From Silvanigrellaceae bacterium (GTDB lineage: Bacteria; Bdellovibrionota_B; Oligoflexia; Silvanigrellales; Silvanigrellaceae), in contig JBMSQQ010000017.1 in NCBI GenBank assembly GCA_049423385.1, positions 1-45,399 on the forward strand: a stretch of DNA of 45,399 nt. The letters are read 5' to 3'. The notes below the pieces were generated by a model. It saw nothing but the letters and a program-made list of their open reading frames with translations. It ran no database searches and had not been told where the DNA came from. Shown here one piece after another: positions 3,663 to 41,275 of this stretch. The translations under genes were made by a program, and so were the position numbers. Each line of letters begins with the position of its first letter. The stretch's first letter is position 1.

Positions 3663-3800
3663 AGTTGTTTTCACAACTGCCACAATTCAGGCGATTGTTC
3701 ACAAAAAGCACAAATGCAGATCTTGGTTTCGGGCTGGACCCAGAATGATAATTCCTTCGCTTGAGGGAATTGGCCCGCTCGGCATTTGGACGGCGAGTAT

Positions 3801-4541
3801 ATGTTGTTTTCAATTGTAGCCATCTTTCGAATGTGTGGAATCGTGACACTCGCACTGCTGCTCAATCTGTTTTTGATATTTCTCCCCGGCAGCAAACTTG
3901 CGCGCATTCACCTGACCTCCAGTTTTTTCAAGCTCATTCTCTCTTTGTGTGGGGTTCACGTTGATTGTAAAATTCCACCCGCCTTGCTGCACGAGGCAGG
4001 GCGCAAAGTGATCGTTGCAAATCACATCAGCTACCTTGATATTTTGATTGTTTCATCATTACGACCCTGTATTTTTCTGGCCAAAAAAGAAGTCGGTGGC
4101 TGGCCGTTGTTTGGCTGGGTGGCGCGCGTGCTGGGATGTATTTTTGTTCATCGAGAATCGCTGATGGGCAGGGCCTGCGCGTTGCGCAATTGTCTGAAGG
4201 CGTCGCATGAAAGCGATATCGCACTTTTTCCGGAAGGAACAACAACGGCTGCTCGATATCCCGATTTGAAGGTGTGGGCCAAAGGGCATGCATGGCTTGC
4301 ACAACGTGCCGGTGCAGATGCCATTCTTTGCCTGGGGTTGGTCTATGAGAATCAGCAGGAACGGGCTTGGATAGACGACGACGCCTTGCTACCGCATTTG
4401 TTTGCAACTCTGCGCAGGCCCAAGACCAAAGTGATAGTCACCGGTGCCTGGGTTCCCGTCGAACAGTCGATTCAACCTGCGCGCCTTGCGCACACAACAC
4501 ACTTTCAACTTTGCACTGCGGTGGCCAATGAATGTTCTTGA
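3801..4541 (+). CDS. Lysophospholipid or lyso-ornithine-lipid acyltransferase (PlsC/OlsA family)
   Basis: NHISYLD, FLAKKEVGGWPLFGW and FPEGTT motifs; start uncertain (3786/3801/3831). Confidence 0.85.
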   Translation: MLFSIVAIFRMCGIVTLALLLNLFLIFLPGSKLARIHLTSSFFKLILSLCGVHVDCKIPPALLHEAGRKVIVANHISYLDILIVSSLRPCIFLAKKEVGGWPLFGWVARVLGCIFVHRESLMGRACALRNCLKASHESDIALFPEGTTTAARYPDLKVWAKGHAWLAQRAGADAILCLGLVYENQQERAWIDDDALLPHLFATLRRPKTKVIVTGAWVPVEQSIQPARLAHTTHFQLCTAVANECS

Positions 4542-5484
4542 AGATATACAGAGTTTCAGTCGCAAATATTCCAACGATATTTTGAGCAGTCGCCTTGAAT
4601 CGATTCAATGTGACGAGGGGAATTTCGACATTGAAATGTTTGAAATCAAACCCCACGACCGCCCCAAAAAAAACCGCTTCACTTTGCTGCTGGTCGCCGG
4701 TGTGCATGGTCTTGAAACTATCGGTGTGACGGTCTTGCTGCATTTCCTTTCGCACCTCATCGAACAAGCCAAGTGGAATGAAGCCGTCAAACGTTCTTTG
4801 GCAAGCGCGCGAGTCGTGGCAATTCCTGCTTTGAACCCTACGGGGATTTTTCAAGGACGCAGGGCGACGTCCGAAGGAATCGACCTCATGCGCAATGCGC
4901 CTGTATCAGCAGAAAAACCACTTCCGTTGTTGGGTGGGCATTCGCTTTCGCCGATTTTGCCCTACTACAAGGGCACGGGAGAACTGGCACAAGAAAGTCG
5001 TGCACTGATTCGTGCTGTCAATGGACTCCTCGAGACGTCCGACGGGATGATTGCCCTCGATTTGCACAGCGGCTTTGGAATGCGCGACAGGTTGTGGACT
5101 CCTTGGTCGATGTCAACGGCATTGCCTCCGCATTGGGAACATTATACGGCCATTCAAAAAGCTCTCGACGATTCGTTTCCTGACCACGTTTACACCTTCG
5201 AGAAGCAGTCCGACAGCTATCAAACAGATGGTGATCTTTGGGACTATCTTCTGTTGGAGAACCAAAACCGAAATGGGCCACTCTTCTTGCCCTTGGCGCT
5301 CGAAATGGGCAGTTGGAATTGGCTGAAAAAAGCTCCATGGCGGGCGTTCAGCAAAATTGGTTGGTTTCATCCGATTGCGGCTCACCGTGTGCAACGTGCG
5401 TGCCGCCGGCACACCACTTTGCTGGACTTTTTGGTGAGCGTCTCTGCGAACTCAGAAAAATTCTTTCGCCAAAGCCTGGGCTGA
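4528..5484 (+). CDS. Zinc carboxypeptidase, M14 family (DUF2817-like)
   Basis: GVHGLE (HxxE), NPTG, DLMRN, DLHSG and LEMG motifs; start overlaps the end of the upstream gene. Confidence 0.85.
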   Translation: MNVLEDIQSFSRKYSNDILSSRLESIQCDEGNFDIEMFEIKPHDRPKKNRFTLLLVAGVHGLETIGVTVLLHFLSHLIEQAKWNEAVKRSLASARVVAIPALNPTGIFQGRRATSEGIDLMRNAPVSAEKPLPLLGGHSLSPILPYYKGTGELAQESRALIRAVNGLLETSDGMIALDLHSGFGMRDRLWTPWSMSTALPPHWEHYTAIQKALDDSFPDHVYTFEKQSDSYQTDGDLWDYLLLENQNRNGPLFLPLALEMGSWNWLKKAPWRAFSKIGWFHPIAAHRVQRACRRHTTLLDFLVSVSANSEKFFRQSLG

Positions 5485-5492
5485 GTCGAGTT

Positions 5493-6311
5493 TCAGCTGA
5501 ACAAGGTCTTTCGGCAACGATCAGACATCGTTGTGGTTGAAAAGTGCATGAGAAAATCGTGGCAATGAAATACGGGATCATGCGCTGGTCCACCGAGGAT
5601 TTTTGCCCCAAGCATCAAGTATGAGCGCAGCAACGGTGGAACAAGAGCTTTCAGATGGGCAGCGTCGAAGTATTCAGATCCGGATTCAACTTTCGTGCTG
5701 GCAGGACACTCAAAGCCTGCTGTCCAGGCACCCGTATTTTGGAAGTATTTGACCAGTGCGTTTGCTTCGGCGTGTGAACGATTGAACACGCTCACGCAGC
5801 CAACTGCTTCGCTTCTTCCTTGCTCGGTCATGTATTTTGCAAGCGCACTCCAAAGGAGTTTTGGGATTGCTCCATTGCGATAAGCCGGATGAACGCAGCT
5901 GCGCCCCAATTCGACCGTCTTTCGCGGGTCGAGCATTTCCATGAGTGGATCCACGACAAATTCATGAGCGGCATAGAGTCCAAGCCCTGCATTTAAGACC
6001 CGGTCGGTGGGCAAGACGCGATAAGTCGCGACAATCCTGCCCTGGTGAATGACGACCAGATGATCGGCAACGGCATCAAAGTCATCAACATCTTTCATGG
6101 TTTGGATGATTTGTTCATTGCCTGACAGGAAGACATCCCATCGTAAAGCAAACACTTCATCAAGTTCGTGTGGAAGGGCCAGACGGACTTCAAACCTTGA
6201 TGACTCTGATTCGTTGCCCAGATGAGAGCGGGCTTCCGAAAATCGTCCGTCAAGCATTGGAACAGATGATGAGATTCGAGCGAATTGACCATTCAGGCTT
6301 GTGTTGTTCAT
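5493..6311 (-). CDS. olsB: GNAT N-acyltransferase, ornithine-lipid/amino-lipid synthase OlsB-like (Acetyltransf_5)
   Basis: LRWDVF..DVDDFDAVADHLVV, VATYRVL, ELGRSCVHPAYRNG, VPPLLRSYLMLGAKILGGPAHDPVF; ATG 6311 with GGAG RBS. Confidence 0.8.
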   Translation of the reverse strand: MNNTSLNGQFARISSSVPMLDGRFSEARSHLGNESESSRFEVRLALPHELDEVFALRWDVFLSGNEQIIQTMKDVDDFDAVADHLVVIHQGRIVATYRVLPTDRVLNAGLGLYAAHEFVVDPLMEMLDPRKTVELGRSCVHPAYRNGAIPKLLWSALAKYMTEQGRSEAVGCVSVFNRSHAEANALVKYFQNTGAWTAGFECPASTKVESGSEYFDAAHLKALVPPLLRSYLMLGAKILGGPAHDPVFHCHDFLMHFSTTTMSDRCRKTLFS

Positions 6312-6379
6312 CGTGGCTCCTGTCGAGAAAGAGATCACTAGATTCTCTCTCCCTCGCGCCTCTCGGAACAGTCCGTTCA

Positions 6380-6472
6380 ATTACGAAACGGTGAATAATT
6401 TCGTCGAATTGTGAACTCACAAAATTGTCAAAAATGATGATTCGACACTTGCTTGTGAAACGAATGTGTCAC
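6380..6472. promoter_or_regulatory. Pho-box-like 7-4-7 direct repeats in the olsB/pstS divergent promoter region
   Basis: Plus strand AACTCAC-aaaa-TTGTCAA (6414-6431) and GTGAAAC-gaat-GTGTCAC (6455-6472); minus strand TATTCAC-cgtt-TCGTAAT (6380-6397). Confidence 0.5.
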
Positions 6473-6544
6473 CCTTGCCAGAAACGATGAGCGCCCGCTA
6501 AGACCCGCTTGTCCTTGTCTACGGACAATTTGAGGAGGTTTTCC

Positions 6545-7366
6545 ATGCGTCTTGTATCGACACTCGTTCTTTCGACTGTTTCAGCTTCTGCATTTGCAGC
6601 TCCATTCACATTCAAAGGCTCCGACACCCTCGCAGGATTGATGACCGACGCCATTCAGGCAGCAGGTCTTCAAGACGAAATTCAGTATGCCGGTGGCGGT
6701 TCTGGCAAAGGTGAAGAGGCGCTTGTGGCCGGCCAACAAGGCATCGCGCCAATGTCACGCGAGATGAAGAAGGAAGCTGCTGCCAAGGCCGTTGCCGCTG
6801 GCATCAACCCAGTTGCTCATCCGATTGCCCTCGACGGCATTGGCGTTTTCGTGAACCGCACAAATGTTGTTGGCAAAATGAGTTTGCCGCTCATCAAGAG
6901 CATCTTCACATGCCAGATCACAGATTGGTCCAAGGTTCCTGCTTCTCAGAAGGTTGGAACAATCGAAGTTTTCCGTCGTGATGACGCTTCCGGAACCACC
7001 GACACCTTCAAATCCATCGTTGGTGTCAAGGAATTCGGACCCTGCGTGAAGGTCCTCAAGGAAACAACCGACATTGCCAATGAAACATCAAACAATCCAA
7101 ACGCAGTCGGATACGCCGGACTTTCGGCAACACGCGATGGCAACCGCCCTGTGACCATTTCCAAGGATGACAATTCGGGAGCTTATTTGCCAACGGTGCA
7201 CAACATCCGCAAGAGCCTTTACCCATTGGCACGTACACTTTATGTGTACGAAGCGACCGGCAGCTACACCTTGAATTCGGCTGAATCAAAGTTGCTTCCT
7301 CAGATTCTTGATCGCTCGTTCATGGATCCTATCGTTCAACAAAACGACTTCATCACATTGGACTGA
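6545..7366 (+). CDS. pstS: Phosphate-binding protein, PstS family
   Basis: Signal peptide; KGSDT, GGGSGKG, PIALDGI, RDDASGT, YPLARTLYVY; GAGGAGG RBS. Confidence 0.85.
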   Translation: MRLVSTLVLSTVSASAFAAPFTFKGSDTLAGLMTDAIQAAGLQDEIQYAGGGSGKGEEALVAGQQGIAPMSREMKKEAAAKAVAAGINPVAHPIALDGIGVFVNRTNVVGKMSLPLIKSIFTCQITDWSKVPASQKVGTIEVFRRDDASGTTDTFKSIVGVKEFGPCVKVLKETTDIANETSNNPNAVGYAGLSATRDGNRPVTISKDDNSGAYLPTVHNIRKSLYPLARTLYVYEATGSYTLNSAESKLLPQILDRSFMDPIVQQNDFITLD

Positions 7367-7372
7367 TTGGTT

Positions 7373-10120
7373 ATGAAAAAATACCTGCGATACCTTCTTG
7401 GCATCGTGGCTGTTGTGACAATCGTCGGATGCGAAGCCTCTGGGCCTTCGTCGTCCGACGTTGTCATTGCTGTTACGCCTGTTCCGGGAAGCAACCCATC
7501 GATTGTTGACCCCAATGGTAATCCGACTGGCAGGGACGGCTCGGCCACCAACGAACCCGGACTTTCAACAAACACCGAGTGCAGTGAACTCAGGACTTCA
7601 TCGGTTCTGCCTCCATTGATTGAGAATGAAAATCCTGTTTCTCCGTCGTCGACATTCGAGGAGCTGCGTGCAGAAGTCGACGCATCTTGCGCTGGCTGCC
7701 ACCTTGCTCCGGCATCCAAAACAGGAGGTTTTTGGTACGTTTCTGCTCGCGACAGAGCCGAAGTTAGAGCCAATGGCCAGAAAGTTGTTGTCGGTGGTAT
7801 CGCAGATCAATCCGAGACGATTCTAAAAGCGTTGTCGGCCAATCGAATGCCGCCCGAAAATATGCGCAAAGCGGCTCCGCAAAAATATGCGAGGCTCCAG
7901 GCGCTGCTGGAAGATTGGATATCCGCTGGCAAGCCCGACGGAAAATTCACGGTTAGAGCTGGCGACAACTCATCAGGAAATGCGCAACGCAACAGGCAGT
8001 CCGACCTTGGGAGCTGCATTCCACGTGCAGATCAGTTGGGTGGAGATCCTGAACGAGATGAGTTCTTTCAGAATGCGACCAGTTTGCCCGAGAAGCTCTC
8101 CCAGACCGACCTTTTCACACTTGACAGTCTTGCACTCGCCCGCAAAGGAACCGTTTCCTACAACGTTGAATATCCGTTGTGGGCAGACAACGCCGAGAAG
8201 GGTCGCTATGTTCACTTCCCAGCGGTTTGGGATGAGCGCGAGCAGCGCCTGAGACCTTCTGGAGCCACGTATAATCCAGTCAGTGGTCAGCTCGACGTGC
8301 CAGCCAACACACGCTTCTACAAAACATTTTATAAAGCCGTGAAAAACAAGCTTGGCACAACTGTTTTCAGGAAGATCGAAACGCGCATCATCGTTGCGCG
8401 CAAAGCTCCACAGGAACCTTTGCATGGATCCTACAAATGGAACGACGATGAATCTGAAGCAATACTCGTGACCACACCCTATCGTGATGGCACACCCTGG
8501 AAAGACGATATTTTTAAGGTTGTCGTCGATGAGCAATCTGGAAAAACGCGAAGATATGTGATTCCAGGAAAGCAACGCTGCGTGGAATGTCACAAGGGTG
8601 GTCAGGATTTTGTGCTCGGATTCACACCATTGCAGTTGAATCGACGGCCTTTAGGGGTTGCAGGTCGGGATCGCGAGCCTGGAGCCGACGAACTCGGACA
8701 AATTCAGAGGTTTGTCGATGCCGGGATTCTCAGGAACGTTCAAAGCCTGAATGACTTGCCGGTGCTCGAAAAGGCAGGAACCCGCGAATCACGAAACGTT
8801 CACGAGACGCGTCTTCAGGGCTACATGGTGGGCAACTGCGCCCATTGCCATAATCCTGATGGGTTCGCCATGAAAGACAACAAAGTGGCCCTCGATTTGC
8901 GCGAGGGACAGCTCTTTGATTTTGATGTTCGTCGTATCACCCGTGATTCGAATCGCAGCAGTCCCAAGTATTTTGCCAAACCCGGGGATCCCCAGCAGAG
9001 TCAGATTTATCTGCGCGTTGCAGCATCTAAAATTGGCGATGGAGGGCGGTATCTGCCCATGCCCATGCACACGCCCGGAGACGCCAACTGCAAGCTTCTC
9101 AACCTCACTGCCAAGTGGATTTATTCATTGAGTCCGGATGCGGCATTGGCGGCCAAAGCTGAAAGTGAACCCGTTGCATGTGAACCCAACGATGATTTTC
9201 AATGGATTGATCTTGATCTGACTTGGCCAACATCGAAGGTTTTCGTTCCTCGTCGAGCCGACTGGAAAGACACTGTGAACGGAATGCCGCAAAGGTTTGT
9301 CGACTTGAAGTTGGATCCGCGGCTTGGAAGGCTGCTTCAGACCCCTGTTGCTGTTGACTTTTGGGATCGAGTTCCTGGCACGAATGGGAAACTTGAGCCC
9401 AAGTGCGACTTTCCGCCCAAGCAGCCGCCACGCAAAGCCGTTGCCTGGATGCTTGACGGCAACGGTTCGTTCAAACAACCCGCCGGAGAACTCTACAAGG
9501 TGACTCCGGGAGCACATTTCTACAACACCACCTGCGCCAAGTGTCATGGCAGTATCGGAGACGGGAAATCAGGTCTTTCAACAAATCTTCTGACGCTTTC
9601 AGGGGGAGCCATTCGAGTTGCCAATCTGAAAGACGGATTGTTTGCACCCGCAAATCAGAAGATTTTTGAAATTCAAGACAGGCGAGGGAAGGTGCGCAAC
9701 CTTGCCGGGCAATACATGATTTGGATGGCCATGGAGGGAACGCGTGTGACATTTCCTCCCGAAATGGAACCATTTGTTGGTCGGCATAAGGCACAGATGC
9801 TCAATCAGCTGCGGGAGCGTTGCAAAAACTTTATTGCCAGCTCACCTCAACGTGCGACCGAACGGATGAAAGACTATCTGGCATTCAAGGATATTTGCTT
9901 CTTCAACAATGGTCGTCCGACAGACAGGGAATTGCAGTTTGATCCTGAAACAGATCAACCACTCAACCCACCTGCGCTCGAGGCATGGGCAGACCGTGCA
10001 GCAATCAATGTTGGTTGGGCAATCAATGACTATCTGCAGAACGAAGGTGCTGCCGGCAAGTGGCAGCCTGCCAAAAACGAATGCGAGAAAGTTTTCCCTT
10101 TGAAAGGGAAAAACGATTGA
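7373..10120 (+). CDS. Large tetraheme c-type cytochrome lipoprotein with a central SO2930/HNE_0200-like diheme domain
   Basis: Lipobox IVG-C; CxxCH at 7688, 8579, 8837 and 9533; central YxVxxPLWADxAEK..FYKTFY..IETRI..YKWNDD..CVECH..LGF..LQLNR..NCAHCHNP pattern. Confidence 0.8.
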   Translation: MKKYLRYLLGIVAVVTIVGCEASGPSSSDVVIAVTPVPGSNPSIVDPNGNPTGRDGSATNEPGLSTNTECSELRTSSVLPPLIENENPVSPSSTFEELRAEVDASCAGCHLAPASKTGGFWYVSARDRAEVRANGQKVVVGGIADQSETILKALSANRMPPENMRKAAPQKYARLQALLEDWISAGKPDGKFTVRAGDNSSGNAQRNRQSDLGSCIPRADQLGGDPERDEFFQNATSLPEKLSQTDLFTLDSLALARKGTVSYNVEYPLWADNAEKGRYVHFPAVWDEREQRLRPSGATYNPVSGQLDVPANTRFYKTFYKAVKNKLGTTVFRKIETRIIVARKAPQEPLHGSYKWNDDESEAILVTTPYRDGTPWKDDIFKVVVDEQSGKTRRYVIPGKQRCVECHKGGQDFVLGFTPLQLNRRPLGVAGRDREPGADELGQIQRFVDAGILRNVQSLNDLPVLEKAGTRESRNVHETRLQGYMVGNCAHCHNPDGFAMKDNKVALDLREGQLFDFDVRRITRDSNRSSPKYFAKPGDPQQSQIYLRVAASKIGDGGRYLPMPMHTPGDANCKLLNLTAKWIYSLSPDAALAAKAESEPVACEPNDDFQWIDLDLTWPTSKVFVPRRADWKDTVNGMPQRFVDLKLDPRLGRLLQTPVAVDFWDRVPGTNGKLEPKCDFPPKQPPRKAVAWMLDGNGSFKQPAGELYKVTPGAHFYNTTCAKCHGSIGDGKSGLSTNLLTLSGGAIRVANLKDGLFAPANQKIFEIQDRRGKVRNLAGQYMIWMAMEGTRVTFPPEMEPFVGRHKAQMLNQLRERCKNFIASSPQRATERMKDYLAFKDICFFNNGRPTDRELQFDPETDQPLNPPALEAWADRAAINVGWAINDYLQNEGAAGKWQPAKNECEKVFPLKGKND

Positions 10121-10145
10121 ATCCGGGGCTCGCGGGCCCCGGATT
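10120..10145. terminator. GC-rich hairpin between convergent genes (possible bidirectional terminator)
   Basis: aatccggggc-tcgcgg-gccccggatt, perfect 10-bp stem. Confidence 0.6.
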
Positions 10146-10151
10146 CCGGGG

Positions 10152-10715
10152 TTACTTGGGGAGCAAGTGACAAGCAATCATGACTTCAGTCAGGTTGAGG
10201 TCCATTGTGGTGTCTTTGTATGCCAAATAGCCGTGCAGATACTTTCCGCCTTCGCCGTCGTTCTTGACTTCAAAGTCGAGGTCATAAATCTTGCGAGCTT
10301 TCCCGTTCATTTCTGCGGTGACTTCAATTTCAAATTTCTTTCCCTCGAAGTCGGTTTCCAGCCCGAGCATTTTTGTTTTCAGGTCTTTCGAGAAGATTTC
10401 ATACTTTTTGAGGTCCGGAGTCAGGTCATTGAGAACGTTGGCAGGGTTGTTCTTGTCTCCGTATGCAGCAATAGTCAGCGTTTCCAGATTTCCATCTTTG
10501 AAGGAAGCACTGGTGCGAATCAAATTCAATTTGGAATCCATACCCGAACAGCTCAGTGTTCCATCCTTCTTCAATTCTCCGACTCGTTCCGAAAGCTTCC
10601 AAACGGCGCGTTCTTCGTCCTGGCCTTTGTTTTTGCTGTCGATCGTCGACTGTTGGGGATGACAAGCAAGAGCCAACACAGGAAAAAGTGCCAGTGCGAT
10701 TTTTGCTTTTGTCAT
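10152..10715 (-). CDS. Hypothetical lipoprotein (187 aa)
   Basis: ATG 10715 with GAGGAG RBS; MTKAKIALALFPVLALA-C lipobox. Confidence 0.8.
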   Translation of the reverse strand: MTKAKIALALFPVLALACHPQQSTIDSKNKGQDEERAVWKLSERVGELKKDGTLSCSGMDSKLNLIRTSASFKDGNLETLTIAAYGDKNNPANVLNDLTPDLKKYEIFSKDLKTKMLGLETDFEGKKFEIEVTAEMNGKARKIYDLDFEVKNDGEGGKYLHGYLAYKDTTMDLNLTEVMIACHLLPK

Positions 10716-10818
10716 CTCGAGAGTCTCCTCTAAATTTGGTTGATGGCTAAACCTTGTACAAAAAAAATCCCAATCAATTCGGTAAGGAATGCTGTAAAGG
10801 CATTTCTGCATTATTGAA

Positions 10819-10835
10819 TGCAAACAGTGTGCCAA
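10819..10835 (-). promoter_or_regulatory. sigma54 (RpoN) -24/-12 promoter
   Basis: TTGGCACACTGTTTGCA, exact GG-N10-GC spacing, about 100 nt upstream of the 10715 start. Confidence 0.75.
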
Positions 10836-10996
10836 AGTCGAGGTTGTCACCAAATGACGCCGGTGAAGCTCATGCTTTCAGGTCGAATCACAAACATGCC
10901 GCCGTTTTTTGCCCATTCGGTTTTACGTCGGATGAGAGCGGTGGGTGATTTGGCTGAACGTTGACTTGTGAATGCCGTGTGACGAAGTTGGGGTCT

Positions 10997-11040
10997 ATGA
11001 AACAAAATTGTAACAAACCTCGATTTCATCCACGGATGAA
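10997..11040 (+). promoter_or_regulatory. Pho-box-like repeat plus palindromic operator upstream of acr3
   Basis: ATGAAAC-aaaa-TTGTAAC (10997-11014); perfect palindrome TTCATCC-ac-GGATGAA (11025-11040). Confidence 0.45.
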
Positions 11041-11090
11041 TGTGCTAATTGGTGCCATATCCGCAAATCTGGCTTCTATTGGTGAACGCA

Positions 11091-12131
11091 ATGAATCAGC
11101 TTTCATTTTTGGACCGTTACCTTACCTTCTGGATTTTCCTTGCGATGGCGTTGGGCGTAGCGTTGGGGAATGTCCTGCCAGAAATTCCATCAACGCTTAA
11201 TAATTTGAGTTCGGGAACGGTCTCTTGGCCGCTGGCTGTGGGCCTGATTCTGATGATGTATCCGCCCCTCGCCAAGGTGAAGTATGAAGAACTTCCATCG
11301 GTCTTTTTGGATTTGAAGGTCCTTGGATTGTCGCTTCTCCAAAACTGGGTCGTTGGTCCGCTGCTGATGTTCGCGCTGGCAGCTGTATTTCTTGCCGACA
11401 AACCCGAGTACATGACGGGTCTTGTGGTTATCGGGCTGGCCCGTTGTATTGCAATGGTGATTGTCTGGAATGACTTGGCAAAAGGAAACCGCGAGTATTG
11501 CGCAGGACTTGTTGCTTTCAATTCGATTTTTCAGGTGCTCTTTTTTCCTTTCTACGCATGGTTGTTTGTGACCTGGCTGCCCAACAAGTTTGGTTTGCAC
11601 AGCATGGCCATTGAAATATCAATCGTCGAAACGGCAAAAGCAGTGGGTCTTTATTTGGGTGTTCCATTTGTTGCTGGATTTCTTTCGAGAATGATTTTGA
11701 TGAAAGCAAAAGGAACTGCCTGGTACGAGCAAAAGTTTATACCACGCATCAGTCCAATCACTCTTGTTGCCTTGCTTCTGACGATCGTCATGATGTTTTC
11801 CCTGAAGGGTGAACTCATGCTGCAGATTCCCTGGGATGTTGTGCACATAGCGATTCCTTTGACCTTGTATTTTGTATTGATGTTTTTGGCGTCGTACTTC
11901 CTGAGCCGCAAGGTGGGAGCCGATCATGCCCGTAGCACAACTCTCTCGTTGACCGCGGCATCCAACAACTTCGAATTGGCAATCGCGGTTGCGATTGCAA
12001 CCTTTGGTTTGAGTTCCGGACAAGCCTTTGCGGCGGTGATTGGGCCCCTGATTGAGGTGCCGGTACTGTTGATTCTTGTGAAAGTTGCACTGCGTTGGGG
12101 TCGCTCCACGGAAGTTCCCGCAACAGAGTGA
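11091..12131 (+). CDS. acr3: Arsenite efflux transporter, ACR3 family
   Basis: [62 protein letters not shown]. Confidence 0.95.
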
Positions 12132-12147
12132 ATTGAGGAGTCTTGCA

Positions 12148-12570
12148 ATGAAAATCGTTTTTCTTTGCGTTGCAAATTCGGCCCGAAGCCAGATGGCAGA
12201 GGGCCTTGCAAGGTCGCTGGCACGACCTTCTGTGGAGGTGTTGAGCGCAGGTTCACAACCCTCTATCGTCAATCCTTTTGCAATTCAGGCAATGTCCGAG
12301 ATTGGGATAGACATATCGAAACATTTTTCGAAAAGTGTTTCAGAAATTGAGTTTGATGATGTTGACGTTGTGATCACACTTTGCGCAGACGAAGTGTGTC
12401 CCGTCTTTGTTGGTTCCGCCCGACGGCTTCACTGGCCATTTCGTGATCCGGCATCCCTTGGGGAAAGCGATTTTGGCCGTCTTGCTGCGTTCCGTGAAGT
12501 GCGCGACGAGATTGCTCAAAAGTTGCGTCATTGGCTGAAAGACGAACAGGCGCTTGCATCGGAGCAATGA
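12148..12570 (+). CDS. arsC: Arsenate reductase, thioredoxin-type (LMW-PTP fold)
   Basis: [15 protein letters not shown]-loop, [11 protein letters not shown] resolving cysteines, [17 protein letters not shown]; directly follows acr3. Confidence 0.92.
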
Positions 12571-20403: not shown

Positions 20404-20913
20404 TCAGTTCGGGACGCTCACCAAAAGTGTCAACTTCACCTTGTCGCTGATGTCCTGGCCTGTGATGGTGACTGCTGCGTTGCAGCTCTTGCCGGCAGCA
20501 TTGGTGAATTTGAAGCTGTATTGCCCGGCGGGCATTGAGGTTGCGGTGAACGACAAATCTTGTGCGGGAACTTCGACACCCGTCGACGGATTTTTCCAAA
20601 CGAGGGATTCGCTCGTGGCAGGATCGGCATCATAAACCTCAATGATGGCACCACTCTTGCCCGAGCTGTTGAGGCTTCCTTTGCTCACGGTCAGATTGCA
20701 ATTCAAAATCACCGGGAGTGAGGTCGTATTATCCGCCGGTGCATTGCTGCTCTCGCCAGCCGAAGACCTCTTTGAATCCGGAGTGCCTGGTTCGGGGTCA
20801 GGATTTCCGGGATTTTCAACTTCAAATCCGCAGCCGTTCAGTGCGCCAATTGCACAGATGATTTGGAAGACAGCAAGTGAAGGTGATGAAAGGAACCAGG
20901 TCTTTTTTTTCAT
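20404..20913 (-). CDS. Hypothetical lipoprotein
   Basis: LNG-C lipobox followed by GFEVENPGNP; ATGA overlap with the upstream TIGR02147 gene. Confidence 0.78.
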   Translation of the reverse strand: MKKKTWFLSSPSLAVFQIICAIGALNGCGFEVENPGNPDPEPGTPDSKRSSAGESSNAPADNTTSLPVILNCNLTVSKGSLNSSGKSGAIIEVYDADPATSESLVWKNPSTGVEVPAQDLSFTATSMPAGQYSFKFTNAAGKSCNAAVTITGQDISDKVKLTLLVSVPN

Positions 20914-21782
20914 TTGCCGTTCCCCGTCACTGGAAAGAGCTGCATGTTCAATTGAAAAATGTCTGCGTCGGCTGTGTTGGTGTCGCTCAGTGCAACAATT
21001 TTTCTGCGCGCCTCGCGGAGAATATTCTTGATTTCCGGAATCTGCTCTGCGCTCAATTTGACTGTCAGGGCACTGAGGTCGCGTTCCGCGGCATCAACTT
21101 CACTGAGACTGCGTTCGCTGAGCTGCAGCATCTCCTGGTGGTATTTGTGTATGGCCAGATTGTTTACACCTTCGGGCACGCGAATGTGCGAATGGGTCAG
21201 TCGATGCTGGTTGTCCTGCACGACCTCAACGTAGCCGAGGCGAATCTGGAGTTCGAGACTCTGTTTGGCCTGATCCGGTGTGATTCTCGGCCGAACGCGC
21301 TGACAAATCCACTTTGGATCCGGCGAGAAATCGGAACGCGCGATGAGTTCGCGGACCACTGGATGAAACCATCGCCCGAAAAATTCCATCTCATCCCGTG
21401 TCAGATCATTTCCCAATGTTTTTTGTCTGACTTCAAAGGCTTTTTTGATTCCCTCGGCACGTTGTGCATTGTGGCGTCCGGCTGTGTGTTCAACGAGGGA
21501 AAGGAACCAGGTGCGTCGTTCGTTGTGCAGGCCAAGATGAGATGCCACCTGTTGTGCACTTCGGAGTGACAACTGGCGTTTGTGTGTACAAATCAGGTGC
21601 AAATAGTTCGTTTCACCAAAACCCAGGTCACGGGAAAACGCGCGATACGAATACCGCGGAAGTTGCTTTTTGAGTTCCTCGTAGGCATGTGAAAGCAGGT
21701 CTTGCACGGATAGAAACGCGAAGACGTCGATCTCGTCGACGATTTCCTTGAGACTTTTTGTCTTGGGCTTGCGTTCCATCAT
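20910..21782 (-). CDS. TIGR02147 / DUF4423 family protein (putative HTH regulator)
   Basis: YSYRAFSRDLGF, WFHPVVRELI, IHKYHQEML, ERDLSALTV, IFQLNMQLFP. Confidence 0.88.
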   Translation of the reverse strand: MMERKPKTKSLKEIVDEIDVFAFLSVQDLLSHAYEELKKQLPRYSYRAFSRDLGFGETNYLHLICTHKRQLSLRSAQQVASHLGLHNERRTWFLSLVEHTAGRHNAQRAEGIKKAFEVRQKTLGNDLTRDEMEFFGRWFHPVVRELIARSDFSPDPKWICQRVRPRITPDQAKQSLELQIRLGYVEVVQDNQHRLTHSHIRVPEGVNNLAIHKYHQEMLQLSERSLSEVDAAERDLSALTVKLSAEQIPEIKNILREARRKIVALSDTNTADADIFQLNMQLFPVTGNGK

Positions 21783-21968
21783 GTGTTCAACCTTCCTCTC
21801 TGCTCATCGGAGTTTCGGGAAAAATATACAGTCCCGCTTAGCCAAATTATTGTGATTTGATGAAAGTGCCTGATTTTAAATCGTTATTTTGGTGTGCTTG
21901 TCTACCAAATTGAAATCCAAGGCAACAGTTTGCTTTTTGAATCAACGAGGCGCGTTTGTCTGCGATCC

Positions 21969-21984
21969 TGGCATGGCAATTGCA
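21969..21984 (+). promoter_or_regulatory. sigma54 -24/-12 promoter
   Basis: TGGCATGGCAATTGCA (GG-N10-GC), about 56 nt upstream of ATG 22041. Confidence 0.75.
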
Positions 21985-22040
21985 AAGCGTGTCTCGCGAC
22001 GCGACATTTGCACAACTCCTTTTTTGGAGAGAATTTCATC

Positions 22041-23033
22041 ATGAAAGACCTGTTTTTACGGTCTTTGATTGCTGCTTCGTTGGCGACATTGGTTGGCTGC
22101 GGAATTTCCAGAAATGATTCTCCACTGTCCACGGATTCAACAGTTGCGTCGACATCCGAGGCATGCCGTTTTTTGGGCGATGCCTATGAGTCCAAGGTTG
22201 TCCTTCCAAAAGGCAGCCACAAAGGGGAGTGTGCCGACACGACCACCGCGAGATCGGTGATTCGAATTCTCGACGATTTTCCAAAAAACTCAGATCGCCT
22301 TCTGGTTGCAAATGTTTCCCATGCGGGAAGTTTCTGGATTGCGGATTTTCCTCGGGACGGGGTGGAGGAAGTTCTTTTTCAAATGGAGCGTTTTCCTGCA
22401 ATCGTACCGGCAGCTCACACCCAGATTCGATTGCGTTTCAAGGAAAACTCTCAGGTTATTTTGAAAAACCAGTTGAATCCGGAGAAACAAGTCACACTCC
22501 GTGATTTTGTCTTGAGTGCCGAGGCGTTGGGACAGAAAGGCTGGTCGTTTGATTTGATGAAGGGAATGAAGGGCGAATATTTGATCAACTACCGCATCAC
22601 CTCCTTGAGCGACAAATTCGACTGGATGATTGTCAAACAAAAGCACCAGGTGATTCAGTGGCCATTGAAGCTTTCTGCAGAAGACAAACAAAAAATTCTT
22701 CCGGCGTATCTTGCATTGGCAAACAAGGAAGGAATGAACAAACTTTATCACACCCTTTCAAAGAACTGCACGAATGAACTGTTCCGGGTGATGGATTCTA
22801 CCCTCCGTTACGGCGCGTTGAGTGTGCTGCCCATCAATCTCAATCCATTCGACGAGATGTATCCGGTTTTGGTCAAGAGTGCTCTGGATGCTCGTGGGCT
22901 TATCCAATATGTGGACAATCCGGCGGCCTATCCGCCGAACAGACCGCTCGACAAGACAACCCACGTTCCCGACAGGTTTGATGTCCGATGGCCCAATCTC
23001 GAGGTTGATCCAACCGCGGTGGGTGCGCCCTGA
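22041..23033 (+). CDS. DUF4105 (Lnb N-terminal-like, permuted papain fold) lipoprotein, paralogue 1
   Basis: Lipobox LVG-C; AAHTQIR, LSAEA, YHTLSKNCTNE; GGAGAG RBS. Confidence 0.7.
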   Translation: MKDLFLRSLIAASLATLVGCGISRNDSPLSTDSTVASTSEACRFLGDAYESKVVLPKGSHKGECADTTTARSVIRILDDFPKNSDRLLVANVSHAGSFWIADFPRDGVEEVLFQMERFPAIVPAAHTQIRLRFKENSQVILKNQLNPEKQVTLRDFVLSAEALGQKGWSFDLMKGMKGEYLINYRITSLSDKFDWMIVKQKHQVIQWPLKLSAEDKQKILPAYLALANKEGMNKLYHTLSKNCTNELFRVMDSTLRYGALSVLPINLNPFDEMYPVLVKSALDARGLIQYVDNPAAYPPNRPLDKTTHVPDRFDVRWPNLEVDPTAVGAP

Positions 23034-23132
23034 TCGTCGTCAGGGGCGCAGTCGTCAAATCCTTTGTCATGCTTGTTTTGCTTGCTGTGAAAATATCCTC
23101 TGTGGTTCTTGTGCTTTGACCATGCGAGAGGT

Positions 23133-23148
23133 TGGCATGGCGATTGCT
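23133..23148 (+). promoter_or_regulatory. sigma54 -24/-12 promoter
   Basis: TGGCATGGCGATTGCT (GG-N10-GC), about 60 nt upstream of ATG 23209. Confidence 0.75.
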
Positions 23149-23208
23149 GGTTCGCGATTGTGACGGGACCACGGGGACTTGAAACGCCGTTCATTCGAAG
23201 GAGTCAAT

Positions 23209-24141
23209 ATGAAACGCTCACTGACCTTGGCTGCTCTTGTGCTTATGGCTGCTTGCAAGATGCCGGTTGTCAAGAATGGCTCTGGTTTGGCCTCCCTCGG
23301 TGGACCCGATTGTATTTTCGATTCCCAGGATCCGTTTGAACCGCACAGCCGTTTGCCCAAAGGCGACAATGCGGGACAATGTTATGACACCCGCAAGGCT
23401 CGCTCACTTGTGCGACTGACGGAAGAACAAGCGCAAAAGTACGGGGGTGCCGCAAAAGATGTCTTGGCGGTTGCCAATATCTCGCACAAAGGCAAATATT
23501 ACGTTGGCCATATTCCCTTGGCTGGCCTGAAGGCCGCCATTTTCCACCTCGAATATTTCCCAGCTGTTGTTCCCGCTGGTCACACCCAATTGCGGTTGCA
23601 ATTCGATGAGAAATTGCCGGTGACCTTGGTTTCCCAATCCAAGGCTGATCCCACCACTGTCGTTCGTGTCACCGACCTCGTGATGAGTGTCGAGGCTTTG
23701 GGCCAACCCGGTTACCAGTACGACATTTTCAAGGGAATGGATGACCAGTTTGGTGCGGTGTATCGCCTGACCACGCTCGAAGAAAAATACGATCACATGA
23801 TCCGAAAGCAGAACCACCGGGTTGAACAATGGAAATTGAACATGAATGCGGATGAGATTCGGACTGCGCTCGAGAAATATGTTGCCAAAAGTGAAGAGCG
23901 TGGAATGAACTCCATGTATCACACCATAAAGCTCAACTGCACAAACGAGATCATGGCTGCAATCGACGATGGAATGGACTACTCCCTGCGTGAGAAGTTC
24001 GGAAAATTCACGGCCAAGACGACCGACTTTTACCCGAACGTGATCCGTATCTCCCTCATCAAGCGTGGATTGCTGCCGCTGGGCAAGGGCAACGATCTTG
24101 AGGAACTTGCGAACGACCCTGTTGCTGCCAAGTTCAAGTGA
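23209..24141 (+). CDS. DUF4105-like lipoprotein, paralogue 2
   Basis: Lipobox MAA-C; AGHTQLR, MSVEA, YHTIKLNCTNE; colinear with 22041..23033; AAGGAG RBS. Confidence 0.7.
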   Translation: MKRSLTLAALVLMAACKMPVVKNGSGLASLGGPDCIFDSQDPFEPHSRLPKGDNAGQCYDTRKARSLVRLTEEQAQKYGGAAKDVLAVANISHKGKYYVGHIPLAGLKAAIFHLEYFPAVVPAGHTQLRLQFDEKLPVTLVSQSKADPTTVVRVTDLVMSVEALGQPGYQYDIFKGMDDQFGAVYRLTTLEEKYDHMIRKQNHRVEQWKLNMNADEIRTALEKYVAKSEERGMNSMYHTIKLNCTNEIMAAIDDGMDYSLREKFGKFTAKTTDFYPNVIRISLIKRGLLPLGKGNDLEELANDPVAAKFK

Positions 24142-40477: not shown

Positions 40478-41275
40478 ATGTTGACTTGGTTGAACAGGAA
40501 TAAATCCTTTTTACTGATTTTGATTGTCATGTTCCTTGGGATCGAGGCATTTGGCCATGGTATTTCTGAAGCTGACAAGGAAAGAATGCTGTCAGGTGGA
40601 AATTTCAGATACGTGGTTCTTGGAGCATCGCACATGCTCACCGGCTACGACCATCTCCTTTTCCTTTTCGGCGTGGTCTTTTTTCTCAGAACTTTTAGAG
40701 ATATCGCAAAATTCGTGAGTGTCTTTACTCTGGGTCACTGCATCACGCTTATTTTTGCGACTTTCTATAAAATCACGATGAACTACTATTTGATCGACGC
40801 CGTGATCGCCATCAGCGTTATCTACAAGGGATTCGACAACAATGGCGGATTCCAAAAACACATCGGTATCAAATCTCCGAGTCTGATTTGGATGGTGTTT
40901 GTTTTCGGACTTGTTCACGGCTTCGGATTGTCCACTCGCCTTCAGCAATTGCCTCTCGGTGATGACAACACTGGAATGCTGACTCGTATTCTATGCTTCA
41001 ATATTGGCGTTGAAATTGGCCAAATTTCCGCTTTGGCTTTGATGGTGGCGGTGCTTGAACTTTGGCGAAAAAAGGCCTCTTTTGACAAATTCAGCACCTT
41101 GGCCAATCAGGGAATTATCGCGGTGGGTATTTTTCTGTTTTTTATGCAGGCACACGGCTACTGGCACGATTCACACCCAAATGATTTTGCATTTCCCTCC
41201 GAAAACCATAAACACATCCACGAAGATATGGAATTGGAACAACTAGATAAGGAGTCAGGTCGTGAGAATCTCTAA
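40478..41275 (+). CDS. HupE/UreJ family membrane protein (putative Ni/Co transporter)
   Basis: HMLTGYDHLLFL, FTLGHCITL, FGLVHGFG, FNIGVEIGQ; His-rich tail. Confidence 0.88.
   Translation: MLTWLNRNKSFLLILIVMFLGIEAFGHGISEADKERMLSGGNFRYVVLGASHMLTGYDHLLFLFGVVFFLRTFRDIAKFVSVFTLGHCITLIFATFYKITMNYYLIDAVIAISVIYKGFDNNGGFQKHIGIKSPSLIWMVFVFGLVHGFGLSTRLQQLPLGDDNTGMLTRILCFNIGVEIGQISALALMVAVLELWRKKASFDKFSTLANQGIIAVGIFLFFMQAHGYWHDSHPNDFAFPSENHKHIHEDMELEQLDKESGRENL

Follow-up and report, generated by a model that had tools for sequence, protein, structure and literature searches.

The stretch of DNA analysed here (the window, 45,399 nucleotides from a Silvanigrellaceae bacterium) carries two closely spaced genes on its forward strand. 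The first, at 6545..7366, was recognised by profile matches as encoding a PstS-like periplasmic binding protein of 273 residues (P0001); the second, at 7373..10120, encodes a four-heme c-type cytochrome lipoprotein of 915 residues (P0002), as judged from its open reading frame, motifs and profiles. The TGA stop codon of the PstS-like gene occupies 7364-7366 and the cytochrome ATG begins at 7373, which confirms the 6-nt gap reported in the initial annotation, and this spacing suggests that the two genes are co-transcribed. The PstS-like gene had also been described as an orphan lacking ABC permease and ATPase genes, and indeed none of a Pst system was found in the 45-kb window when 42 ORFs were profiled with Pfam and NCBIfam and a generic ABC-ATPase probe was run by tblastn; the term orphan thus applies to the window, not to the genome.

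The PstS-like protein carries a signal peptide (MRLVSTLVLSTVSASAFA/AP) and matches PBP_like_2 of Pfam at 93.1 bits (cut-off 27), as had been anticipated for the product of 6545-7366. Its best solved relatives are the 'phosphate binding protein' entries 4pqj and 4omb (E ~4e-20), and it has the fold family and the signal peptide in common with the PstS of PstSCAB. The segments that align with the solved phosphate-binding proteins (GSDT, GGGSG, MSR, D97 and R145..SGT) are invariant in the subfamily, S26, T28, S53, S71-R72, D97, R145 and S149-G150-T151 being unchanged among 40 orthologues, so that the phosphate-site residues are retained in 40/40. Unlike PstS, the protein scores below the cut-off of the PstS-family model TIGR02136 (139.5 against 206.6 bits), as do the cytochrome-linked orthologues (117-146 bits), and it is further set apart by two additional cysteines (C123/C167) and by a C-terminal tail whose last residue is D273, both likewise invariant among the 40 orthologues; the ORF stops directly after D273 in all 46 loci in which the PstS-like gene lies upstream. 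By their sequences, these proteins form a distinct subfamily below the NCBIfam cut-off, marked by the invariant tail.

The cytochrome begins with a lipobox-like N-terminus (MKKYLRYLLGIVAVVTIVGC) and contains CxxCH motifs at residues 106, 403, 489 and 721 (codons at 7688-7702, 8579-8593, 8837-8851 and 9533-9547, forward strand), all of which, along with M159, M563 and M785, are invariant among 21 aligned homologues. The lipobox Cys20 is followed by a low-complexity tether (residues ~21-90; 7433..7642), with pLDDT below 50 at residues 17-67 and 81-89 and a length and sequence that differ among homologues. Next comes a PSCyt1-like heme-1 domain (residues ~94-195; 7652..7957), which gave a weak PSCyt1 match at residues 106-162 (21.1 bits, just under the cut-off of 22) and holds an invariant M159-P160 whose methionine is a candidate axial ligand. 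The SO2930-like core (residues 205-640; 7985..9292) consists of a beta-sandwich and then hemes 2 and 3, and is followed by the C-terminal heme-4 domain (residues ~640-915; 9290..10117), where the PstS-like protein is predicted to dock, with a Cytochrome_CBB3 match at residues 710-737 and, from the family profile, a CcoP-like match. These matches agree with the earlier description of four CxxCH motifs in a diheme core with additional N- and C-terminal mono-heme domains. The label 'SO2930-like' stands as a likeness and not as family membership, as TIGR03806 ('SO2930 family diheme') aligns with residues 239-554 over model positions 2-287 of 314, two shared CxxCH motifs included, at 132.4 bits (cut-off 313.3). 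The nearest Atlas clusters likewise include 'TIGR03806 family' and 'SO2930 family diheme c-type cytochrome'. Compared with the SO2930/HNE_0200 diheme cytochromes, the protein is long (~900 residues), has gained the PSCyt1-like and class-I heme domains, the lipid anchor and the tether, and is partnered with a binding protein. SO2930-family proteins usually sit beside a beta-helix protein, and a profile search of the ORFs found no such neighbour in the window. The AlphaFold2 model of the core, built from 90 sequences, reached a pLDDT of 86.5 and a pTM of 0.86, and a Foldseek search with this model returned 0 matches in the PDB at E<=0.001; the core is a distant SO2930/TIGR03806 relative without a structural match in the PDB. 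Near heme 2 it presents the invariant residues K276, R278, H281, R338, R343, R371 and R402.

The initial annotation had let its reading depend on whether homologues of the cytochrome are linked to pstS in other genomes, and the neighbourhood survey revealed such a linkage. Of 60 related loci from several families of Bdellovibrionota, 50 have a PstS-like gene directly beside the cytochrome gene and in the same orientation, upstream in 46 and downstream in four, the latter being Oligoflexus loci with inverted gene order. Nine of the ten loci with no PstS-like neighbour are missing the needed flank from their sequence; the tenth (L033), the sole unpaired locus with real flanks on both sides, has the cytochrome and no PstS-like gene in 6 kb upstream and 938 bp downstream. 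Twelve Silvanigrellaceae-type loci have the same 6-nt gap as the window, and the gap in 35 other loci has a median of 12 nt (at most 30 nt in 26/35). The pairing is far beyond chance. As in the window, pstCAB is absent from beside the pair in the loci examined: an ABC ATPase of any kind lies within 6 kb in only 4/60 loci, the window having none, and the flanking permease is of ABC-2 type in three of these (L044, L048, L050), the partner of the ATPase in the fourth (L047) being without annotation.

Prediction of the complex, which the initial annotation had suggested, supports direct binding. Modelled without hemes and without cytochrome residues 1-204, the two proteins gave an ipSAE of 0.84 (0.85, 0.84 and 0.83 in three runs), as against 0.02 for the best of three controls, with 108-118 contacts, a partner pLDDT of at least 87 and a contact agreement between runs of at least 83%. 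The mark of 0.84 is reached by 116/157 solved complexes and by 2/215 mismatched pairs, counts that are only roughly valid here since our own alignments were used. On the PstS-like side the predicted interface comprises two segments at the edges of the phosphate site (residues 27-28 and 148-150) and the tail (257-271); on the cytochrome side it comprises 662, 691-692, 718-735 (around the heme-4 CxxCH), 796-834, 859-867 and 900-903. The predicted partner of the PstS-like protein is thus a cytochrome domain, in place of the permease that serves PstS, and in the model the cleft mouth and the tail dock onto the heme-4 domain. Conservation of the interface is higher than in the remaining protein on the PstS-like side (0.72 vs 0.64); on the cytochrome side it does not exceed that of the remaining domain (0.52 vs 0.58), which counts against the explanation proposed below.

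Upstream, an olsB-like ornithine N-acyltransferase gene (5493..6380, reverse strand; NF052555 105.9 bits, below the cut-off of 320; Acetyltransf_5 85 bits) is divergent from the PstS-like gene and has a common control region with it. Alignment of 13 Silvanigrellaceae-type promoters revealed a conserved box of the TTCACA..TTGTCA type at 6415..6430 (forward strand) in this intergenic region, which may have a regulatory role, and a direct repeat resembling an operator (TGTGAA-N5-TGTGTCA, period 11 bp) at 6454..6471 (forward strand), whose TGTGAAA and TGTG cores are invariant in 13/13 promoters. The window contains one exact match to the operator and four matches at two mismatches or fewer (1.6 expected); 6 loci have an exact match in the corresponding position, and a copy with two mismatches lies in the intergenic region of canonical pstS and olsA in both loci that have one (L003 and L011), which are close relatives and do not represent two independent cases. 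The direct repeat may resemble PhoB/PhoP boxes. The E. coli-type Pho box was not enriched, matches of at least 11/14 occurring in 2/46 upstream regions compared with 18/920 random and 22/920 shuffled ones. Sequence and conserved columns point to a weak candidate promoter at 6475..6504 (forward strand; -35-like TTGCCA at 6475-6480, an 18-nt spacer and -10-like TAAGAC at 6499-6504), where a consensus promoter scan made no call. A small conserved 5'-UTR hairpin (6511..6526, forward strand) precedes the Shine-Dalgarno sequence GAGGAGG (6532-6538); RNAalifold on 13 sequences gave it four pairs, one with compensatory changes in 5/13. At the other end, the unit had been said to close in a hairpin, and a strong GC-rich one is indeed present at 10119..10146, between the cytochrome gene and a convergent gene (10152-10715, reverse strand), with an 11-bp stem, 8 GC pairs, -26 kcal/mol and z = -3.0 (equalled by 1/200 shuffles). 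Its T-run sits on the minus strand, however, and the hairpin therefore looks like a terminator for that gene, or is at best bidirectional.

The genomic context suggests a connection with phosphorus. The olsB-like gene adjoins the pair in Silvanigrellaceae-type loci, its cluster being present in 13/61 sources including the window, and olsB and olsA flank the pair. In L003 and L011 a canonical PstS (235 bits, above 206.6) is encoded ~4 kb upstream, and the operons of the pair include Porin_O_P or Porin_5 porins (cluster c4 in 19 loci, c17 in 4). Of the roles suggested in the initial annotation, the release of Fe(III)-bound phosphate gains indirect support from the ornithine-lipid genes, the nearby canonical pstS, the Cyc2-like heme-porin and the anion porins. 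In other clades the genes flanking the pair bear no relation to phosphorus or iron, which counts against it.

We propose that the two genes encode a periplasmic heterodimer. The soluble PstS-type partner would still bind phosphate, yet instead of handing it over to a PstCA permease would dock by its cleft mouth and invariant tail onto the heme-4 domain of the cytochrome, which would be held on the membrane by its lipid anchor and a flexible tether of ~70 residues. Hemes 1, 3 and 4, each with a conserved methionine, look like an electron wire, while heme 2 would lie against a conserved beta-sandwich rich in invariant Arg, Lys, His and Tyr residues, in a fold without a solved relative. The module would link electron transfer outside the cytoplasm with the occupancy or capture of phosphate, and probably belongs to the phosphate-starvation response; its most likely purpose would be to release phosphate from Fe(III) minerals or colloids and to trap it. 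In the Bdellovibrio-type operons, a diheme lipoprotein, the Cyc2-like heme-porin, YceI and anion porins may add an electron path to the surface and a route of anion entry. The conserved pairing, the retained phosphate-site residues, the four invariant heme motifs and the clade-specific contexts are observations, the complex and its interface are predictions, and Pho control, the direction of electron flow and the iron-phosphate role are inferences. That the two proteins form a functional pair is highly probable in our judgement, and a link to phosphate starvation is somewhat favoured; the explanation as a whole, a phosphate-starvation complex in which phosphate binding is coupled to electron transfer, is put forward tentatively, and mobilisation of Fe(III)-bound phosphate in particular is doubtful. 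Phosphate is not redox-active, and so there is no chemical necessity for the coupling. Linkage, inverted gene orders and the predicted complex support the earlier proposal of a system not previously described, in which a redox lipoprotein, and not pstCAB, is the partner of a phosphate- or oxyanion-binding protein. Throughout the phylum, a phosphate-binding protein with no transporter genes next to it is encoded beside a membrane-tethered four-heme cytochrome onto which it is predicted to dock; this suggests that phosphate capture is tied to extracytoplasmic electron transfer in a way not yet described.

There are partial precedents for such a module. TorT-TorS, AioX-AioS and LuxP-LuxQ are substrate-binding proteins signalling to non-transport partners, and they share with the PstS-like protein the lack of an own ABC transporter and action via protein contact; in the present pair, however, a multiheme cytochrome lipoprotein takes the place of the sensor kinase or chemoreceptor, and no kinase was conserved beside the pair in the related loci. 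Phosphorus limitation is described as switching on iron-reducing redox metabolites, such as phenazines, that aid phosphorus acquisition (PMC11784245), and this reduction of iron to gain phosphorus is the analogy behind the proposed role. Those metabolites are small, secreted and PhoBR-controlled, whereas the putative agent here would be a protein complex.

The alternative that survives best, although unlikely, is an oxyanion oxidoreductase, in which the PstS-like subunit would bind a redox-active analogue of phosphate (such as arsenate, vanadate or phosphite) and offer it at the heme-4 edge or pass it to the Arg/Lys-rich heme-2 pocket, with electrons moving between the ligand and the four-heme chain. 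The docking sets the ligand-site flanks against the heme-4 CxxCH segment, many invariant Arg, Lys, His and Tyr residues lie next to heme 2, and the core fold, having no solved relative, leaves room for a catalytic role. In the window, acr3 and arsC lie 0.9 kb downstream of the pair, but they are linked to it in 0/60 related loci, and the arsenic role offered in the initial annotation gains no support. All canonical phosphate-site residues are invariant, including the Asp that selects protonated phosphate; the invariant M785, at the usual distance from heme 4, favours a six-coordinate heme for electron transfer over a catalytic heme; and we know of no heme-only enzyme for anions of this type.

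We consider it quite unlikely that the system serves Fe(II) oxidation or respiratory electron entry, with electrons passing from the Cyc2-like heme-porin via the diheme lipoprotein and the four-heme lipoprotein to an oxidase, and with the PstS-like protein in a structural or protective role, for example keeping phosphate from co-precipitating with new Fe(III). The heme-4 domain resembles CcoP of cbb3 oxidases, and the Bdellovibrio-type operons contain the diheme lipoprotein in 27 loci, the heme-porin, a heme-plus-barrel protein with a Cyc2-like N-terminus, in 26 and YceI in 17. To our knowledge, described porin-cytochrome conduits include no binding protein; the likeness to these and to Cyc2 fused cytochrome-porins lies in the heme-porin, a largely barrel-like protein of ~375 residues with a signal peptide, and in the accompanying diheme lipoprotein. 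The heme-porin has a single CxxCH, which follows A-F-P-E-[MF]-[VA]-R near the start (~10 residues) of the mature chain; its nearest named Atlas cluster is 20% Porin_O_P, and its hhalign comparison with the operon porins was not significant. Cyc2 proteins are presented as outer-membrane Fe(II) oxidases, not reductases (PMC8406198), which speaks for this alternative and against the main explanation. Their consensus AXPXFAR[Q/K][T/Y], as given in the same source, is only partly matched by the heme-porin, which has a spacing of 3 residues instead of 5 and lacks the PXL motif, so it was not counted as a Cyc2 member. Moreover, the pair is kept in Silvanigrellaceae-type and Oligoflexus-type loci without the heme-porin operon genes, and in the window the diheme lipoprotein, the heme-porin, YceI and the porins all lack a homologue; it therefore represents a minimal module in which no path to the exterior is evident, a point that weighs against the main explanation too. 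Nor would this alternative account for the invariant tail and phosphate site of the binding protein, or for the ornithine-lipid and canonical pstS context.

It is improbable that the two proteins do separate jobs, the PstS-like protein feeding a PstCAB encoded elsewhere and the cytochrome being an unrelated respiratory protein. The phosphate site is canonical, sources call the relatives phosphate transport substrate-binding proteins, the absence of pstCAB covers the window and not the rest of the genome, and blindly picked neighbours can pass the complex test (7/44 in the description of the method). Against this stand the adjacency across several families in either gene order, the existence of a distinct subfamily where canonical PstS is encoded nearby (L003 and L011), the position of the invariant tail in the predicted interface and the very large margin over the controls. 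Finally, MauG/MbnH-type enzymes are encoded next to their protein substrates, and the predicted contact is tight, but a diheme core that modifies the PstS-like protein in this manner is scarcely credible, as the CCP_MauG match (residues 478-508, 14.9 bits, cut-off 25.6) is far under its cut-off and covers the heme motif only, the fold search gave no peroxidase or MauG relative, and the predicted interface lies away from the diheme core, on the heme-4 domain.

The PstS-like gene (window 6545-7366 (+)) and the cytochrome gene downstream of it (7373-10120 (+)) form a conserved two-gene module, and this is a solid result. Scanning one genome per species gave 60 related loci that carry a cytochrome homologue, representing the best 80 of 107 confirmed stretches, and all of them are labelled Bdellovibrionota or bear vague MAG names. 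In 50 of the 60, the cytochrome gene has a PstS-like gene (48-85% identity by tblastn) as immediate neighbour on its own strand. Six of the ten other loci start inside the cytochrome gene and two have no room upstream of it; L048, a locus with Oligoflexus-type neighbours, stops 43 bp past its cytochrome gene, and L033 is the sole locus with usable flanks (6 kb upstream, 938 bp downstream) and yet no PstS-like gene. The cytochrome gene comes first and the PstS-like gene second in four Oligoflexus loci, with adjacency and strand unchanged. The initial annotation had placed the two genes 6 nt apart, which is correct; the same gap recurs in 12 Silvanigrellaceae-type loci, while the gap in 35 other loci has a median of 12 nt and is at most 30 nt in 26 of them. 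Because the two genes are linked in so large a share of the loci, the coupling of cytochrome and binding protein proposed in that annotation withstands the survey of gene neighbourhoods. It is very probable that the two products cooperate, and probable that they bind one another.

The upstream gene encodes a 273-aa product with a cleavable signal peptide. Its residues 20-239 match the Pfam family PBP_like_2 (PF12849) with 93.1 bits, above the gathering cut-off of 27 bits, whereas the score against the NCBIfam PstS family TIGR02136 (139.5 bits) lies under the curated cut-off of 206.6. Four cytochrome-linked orthologues score 117-146 bits against TIGR02136, and the canonical PstS proteins of loci L003 and L011 score 235 bits. 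The closest solved relatives are 4pqj and 4omb, both named 'phosphate binding protein' (E about 4e-20), with which the GSDT, GGGSG and MSR segments, an Asp and the R..SGT segment pair up in the alignment. The PstS-like protein thus aligned carries a complete phosphate-site pattern, i.e. the Ser/Thr of the N-terminal loop, the Ser of GGGSG, the Asp, the Arg and the Ser-Gly-Thr. Residues S26, T28, S53, S71-R72, D97, R145 and S149-G150-T151 are invariant in 40 of 40 orthologues, and we take these positions, judging from E. coli PstS, to be the phosphate-contacting residues. In E. coli PstS the Asp selects the protonated oxyanion, and arsenate is the usual weaker mimic of phosphate. Since the presumed contact residues are invariant, the Asp included, the sequence points to phosphate as the most likely ligand. 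The same 40 orthologues share an invariant Cys pair (C123/C167), the C-terminal tail LDRSFxDPIVQxHxFxT(L/I/V)D is conserved, and the ORF ends directly after the final Asp of this tail in 46 of 46 loci with the PstS-like gene upstream. By these signatures the group is a subfamily of its own. Relatives are named 'phosphate transport system substrate-binding protein' or 'hypothetical' in the source records.

The genes of a Pst transporter do not accompany it in the window. Neither pstC, pstA nor pstB is encoded with the PstS-like gene in the 45-kb window; a Pst permease or ATPase, phoU and phoBR are absent from the 42 window ORFs scanned, and a generic ABC-ATPase probe was likewise blank, in agreement with the initial annotation, which had reported no ABC permease or ATPase genes. 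An ABC ATPase lies within 6 kb in just 4 of the 60 loci; an ABC-2-type permease stands beside three of these, and in the fourth, L047, the partner is without annotation.

The 915-aa cytochrome has CxxCH motifs at residues 106, 403, 489 and 721, the four that had been annotated initially, and all are invariant in an alignment of 21 homologues. Its N-terminus (...VTIVGC) is lipobox-like, the lipobox consensus being [LVI][ASTVI][GAS]C at the close of the signal peptide; Cys20 is invariant in the 21 homologues and the orthologous cytochromes also start with lipobox-like N-termini. The signal peptide and lipobox therefore mark a predicted bacterial lipoprotein. The predicted lipidation site, Cys20, is followed by a low-complexity stretch of about 70 residues (pLDDT below 50 at residues 17-67 and 81-89), which we read as a probable tether. 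Residues 239-554 match TIGR03806, the SO2930 family of diheme c-type cytochromes, with 132.4 bits, under the curated cut-off of 313.3, and this core holds two of the invariant motifs, C403xxCH and C489xxCH. The SO2930 family usually has a parallel beta-helix protein (TIGR03805) as neighbour; no such protein was found among 15 window neighbours by NCBIfam, nor by Pfam. A PSCyt1 match around the first heme motif is borderline, and a Cytochrome_CBB3 match surrounds the fourth. An invariant Met stands at a plausible distance from each of three hemes (M159-P160, M563-P564 and M785), which suggests that these would be six-coordinate electron-transfer hemes. Before heme 2 lies a beta-sandwich with invariant K276, R278, H281, R338, R343, Y354, W356, R371 and R402. 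The model of the core (residues 205-640, 90 sequences) reached a pLDDT of 86.5 and a pTM of 0.86, and that of the whole cytochrome a pLDDT of 74.1. Fold searches of both models against the PDB gave no match at E<=0.001, and weak recurrent matches to cytochrome c'-beta/P460 (probability 0.2-0.44, TM about 0.3) are a lead only. The family profile matched only CcoP-like PDB sequences, at the region of the heme-4 motif. As modelled, the core is a new fold.

Direct binding between the two proteins is supported by the predicted complex. Cytochrome residues 205-915 and binding-protein residues 20-273 were co-folded with a separate alignment for each, without hemes and without residues 1-204 of the cytochrome. 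The complex reached an ipSAE of 0.84 (0.85, 0.84 and 0.83 in three runs) with 108-118 contacts, at least 83% of which agree between runs, and a partner pLDDT of at least 87, against an ipSAE of 0.02 for the best of three controls. In calibration, 116 of 157 solved complexes and 2 of 215 mismatched pairs scored this high, counts which hold only roughly here because our own alignments were used. As no solved complex of this kind is known to us, the score is unlikely to reflect a memorised structure. In the prediction the binding protein contributes both lobes at the cleft mouth (residues 27-50, 146-150, 173-175, 193-202 and 215-219) together with the conserved tail (257-271). The cleft-mouth face is the side that a binding protein normally turns to its permease. 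The cytochrome contributes its C-terminal domain, including the segment with the heme-4 CxxCH (718-735) and the helices 796-834, 859-867 and 900-903. Conservation is higher at the interface than elsewhere on the binding protein (0.72 versus 0.64), but not on the cytochrome (0.52 versus 0.58).

In the Silvanigrellaceae-type loci, as in the window, the surroundings of the pair have a phosphorus flavour. There, an ornithine-lipid cluster (window 3786-6380) comes before the pair, in which an olsA-like acyltransferase gene is followed by an overlapping M14 carboxypeptidase-like gene and a divergent olsB-like gene, and this order is conserved. Ornithine lipids are phosphorus-free membrane lipids that are often produced under phosphate limitation. 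In six loci (L002, L003, L004, L010, L011 and L013) the gene directly before the pair encodes an exported protein that matches CYTH weakly and below the cut-off (E 0.0033). The canonical PstS of L003 (137-1129 (-)) and L011 (130-1113 (-)) is encoded beside olsA, some 4 kb upstream of the PstS-like gene, so that in these genomes a single region houses both a canonical and a cytochrome-linked copy. The arsenic handling considered in the initial annotation has a local counterpart in a small arsenic-resistance unit 0.9 kb past the cytochrome gene (window 11049-12570 (+)), composed of acr3, an arsenite efflux gene (TIGR00832, 438 bits, above the cut-off), and an overlapping arsC of the LMW-phosphatase type. 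As conserved context we rejected this link, since acr3/arsC occur in none of the 60 loci. No function recurred among the genes that flank the pair in 15 loci of other types. Elsewhere in the window we noted a TIGR02147/DUF4423 family protein (20910-21782 (-)), two tandem Lnb_N-domain paralogues (21894-24141 (+)) and a HupE/UreJ-DUF6488 pair (40478-41642 (+)).

A direct repeat with an 11-bp period (TGTGAAAcGAwTGTGtCA, window 6454-6471) precedes the PstS-like gene and is invariant in 13 of 13 aligned promoters, which also have in common an upstream TTCACA..TTGTCA box and a weak -35/-10 pair. In our own reading this pair is a candidate promoter; a sigma-70 consensus scan of 5400-11200 called no promoter before the PstS-like gene. 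A small conserved 5'-UTR hairpin (6511-6526) lies just before the Shine-Dalgarno sequence; in 5 of 13 sequences one of its pairs (C-G or U-A) has changed in a compensatory way. A copy of the repeat with two mismatches stands in the canonical pstS/olsA intergenic region in both loci that have this region, L003 and L011, which are close relatives; copies with at most two mismatches are expected by chance about 1.6 times per 45 kb. Another two-mismatch copy lies upstream of acr3 (10967-10984) and may be chance, with 1.6 expected per window. Upstream of 46 PstS-like genes, a scan for the E. coli-type Pho box gave no enrichment over random or shuffled sequence. Control of the pair by a Pho system is plausible. 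At the other end, the initial annotation had let the unit end in a hairpin. A GC-rich hairpin does exist past the cytochrome gene (10119-10146; -26 kcal/mol, z = -3.0), and 1 shuffled sequence in 200 folds as stably. Because the T-run belongs to the minus strand, the hairpin serves at least the convergent gene (10152-10715 (-)), which has it in common with the cytochrome gene. This gene encodes a small exported protein that lacks any Pfam or NCBIfam match, and homologues of it (40-85% identity) occur at or near the same place in nine related loci as well as in the window. Its candidacy as a YceI relative was rejected (hhalign probability 0.7%).

In the Bdellovibrio, Pseudobdellovibrionaceae and Bacteriovoracaceae loci the pair is part of a longer same-strand row of genes. 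The row includes a porin, of the Porin_5 type in 19 loci or of the Porin_O_P type in 4, as well as YceI (17 loci), a diheme lipoprotein resembling PSCyt1 (27 loci) and a putative heme-barrel protein (26 loci). One Porin_O_P-type porin (L018 10954-12063 (+), neighbour cluster c17) has a weak match (26 bits, cut-off 150) to ExtI, the porin of a selenite/tellurite-reduction porin-cytochrome cluster; the match probably reflects general porin likeness only. The heme-barrel protein is about 375 aa long (median 377), with a single CxxCH some 10 residues into the mature chain, preceded at a distance of 3 residues by A-F-P-E-[MF]-[VA]-R-H-G. The lead for reading it as a barrel or porin is the nearest named Atlas cluster (20% Porin_O_P, score 0.97), and hhalign of its family against the operon porins was not significant. 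PMC8406198 describes Cyc2 as a cytochrome fused to a porin whose barrel is OprO/P-like; the protein is recognised by AXPXFAR[Q/K][T/Y] 5 residues before CXXCH, PXL 4 residues after it, a length of at least 365 aa and a 16-strand porin. Compared with that description, the N-terminus of the heme-barrel protein recalls the Cyc2 signature, but its spacing is 3 instead of 5 residues and the PXL motif is missing. A search of the window for diheme lipoprotein, heme-porin, Porin_5, YceI, Porin_O_P and CYTH-like genes found none; it gave only weak heme-motif matches, the best (E 1.85e-06) at the other cytochrome gene (30639-30953), and the query from neighbour cluster c9 matched its own gene (10155-10853). 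That second c-type cytochrome gene (30039-31193 (+)), whose 384-aa product contains four Cytochrome_CBB3-like stretches, is flanked by glycosyltransferase genes on one side and an NFACT-like gene on the other.

On account of the phosphorus-flavoured surroundings and the operator shared with canonical pstS, a role of the module in phosphate starvation is its best reading, and one that we hold to be reasonably probable. More tentatively, the module may use redox chemistry to help mobilise phosphate bound to Fe(III) and to capture it, and the phosphate occupancy might in addition gate the flow of electrons. We favour this role because the extended operons resemble an outer-membrane electron conduit with anion porins, because the predicted docking sets the cleft over the edge of heme 4, and because iron reduction under phosphorus limitation is documented in other bacteria, where, according to PMC11784245, it proceeds via small molecules. 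Under such a mechanism, a phosphate-type binding protein that has left its transporter would be docked over the heme-4 edge of a tethered four-heme cytochrome, at the spot that a permease would normally occupy, and would have been recruited as a ligand-reading subunit of the multiheme cytochrome. Phosphate occupancy would then gate or direct electron flow through the membrane-tethered four-heme wire, and Bdellovibrionota could thereby reduce Fe(III) phases and seize the released phosphate in a protein-based, phosphate-controlled manner. That the binding protein reads the ligand and that its occupancy steers electrons to Fe(III) phases is likewise a possibility that we advance with caution.

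Four other explanations were weighed. The pair could be a binding-protein-dependent oxyanion oxidoreductase, with the oxyanion as the substrate of the redox reaction, and we regard this as rather doubtful. A pathway of Fe(II) oxidation, in which the phosphate-binding subunit would be structural, is unlikely. That the two genes are unrelated neighbours appears improbable beside their conserved adjacency and the predicted complex. A maturation enzyme of the MauG type is very improbable.

A second role, as sensors for kinases and chemoreceptors, is known for the binding proteins of ABC transporters; the principle of working through a non-transport partner is the same here, but the type of partner, a cytochrome, is new. 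Our literature search, outside the coverage of which lay subscription journals and supplements, found no description of a binding protein as a cytochrome subunit, nor of a PstS-multiheme pairing; SO2930 appears in one paper, as an item in a list. Across a phylum whose bacteria are common in fresh water and soil the pair has been kept, with both partners annotated only as 'hypothetical' or 'PstS family'. Should the complex couple the sensing or capture of phosphate to electron transfer outside the cytoplasm, it would explain how some bacteria gain access to the large pool of iron-bound phosphate without secreted mediators, give a first handle on the function-less SO2930-like cytochromes and provide a marker gene pair for the process in metagenomes. 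If phosphate occupancy does gate electron flow, the module would represent a new class of redox machines that depend on a binding protein, and it would add a new route to the coupled cycling of iron and phosphorus in fresh waters.

The cytochrome itself has at least 208 full-length homologues at E<=0.001 among 8,000 candidates scored. Among the 120 matches listed, lengths are 816-1,022 aa and identities 38-79%; where named, these proteins are called 'hypothetical', 'cytochrome c553' or 'mono/diheme cytochrome c family protein', and the labelled hosts are Silvanigrellales, Bdellovibrio or Pseudobdellovibrionaceae. In one locus, L057 (6001-8399), the cytochrome gene consists of two consecutive ORFs (731 and 141 aa), which could reflect a frameshift, an assembly error or a pseudogene. 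HMMER against 1.84 billion representatives gave 2,982 matches at E<=0.001, 173 of them at E<=1e-30, including about two dozen full-length representatives and a larger set of proteins of 1,200-1,400 aa (P0259-P0365). These longer relatives have cytochrome residues of about 30-525 in common (38-46% identity) and carry a CBB3-like heme domain near residue 900, some of them with N-terminal DUF4215 cysteine-rich repeats.
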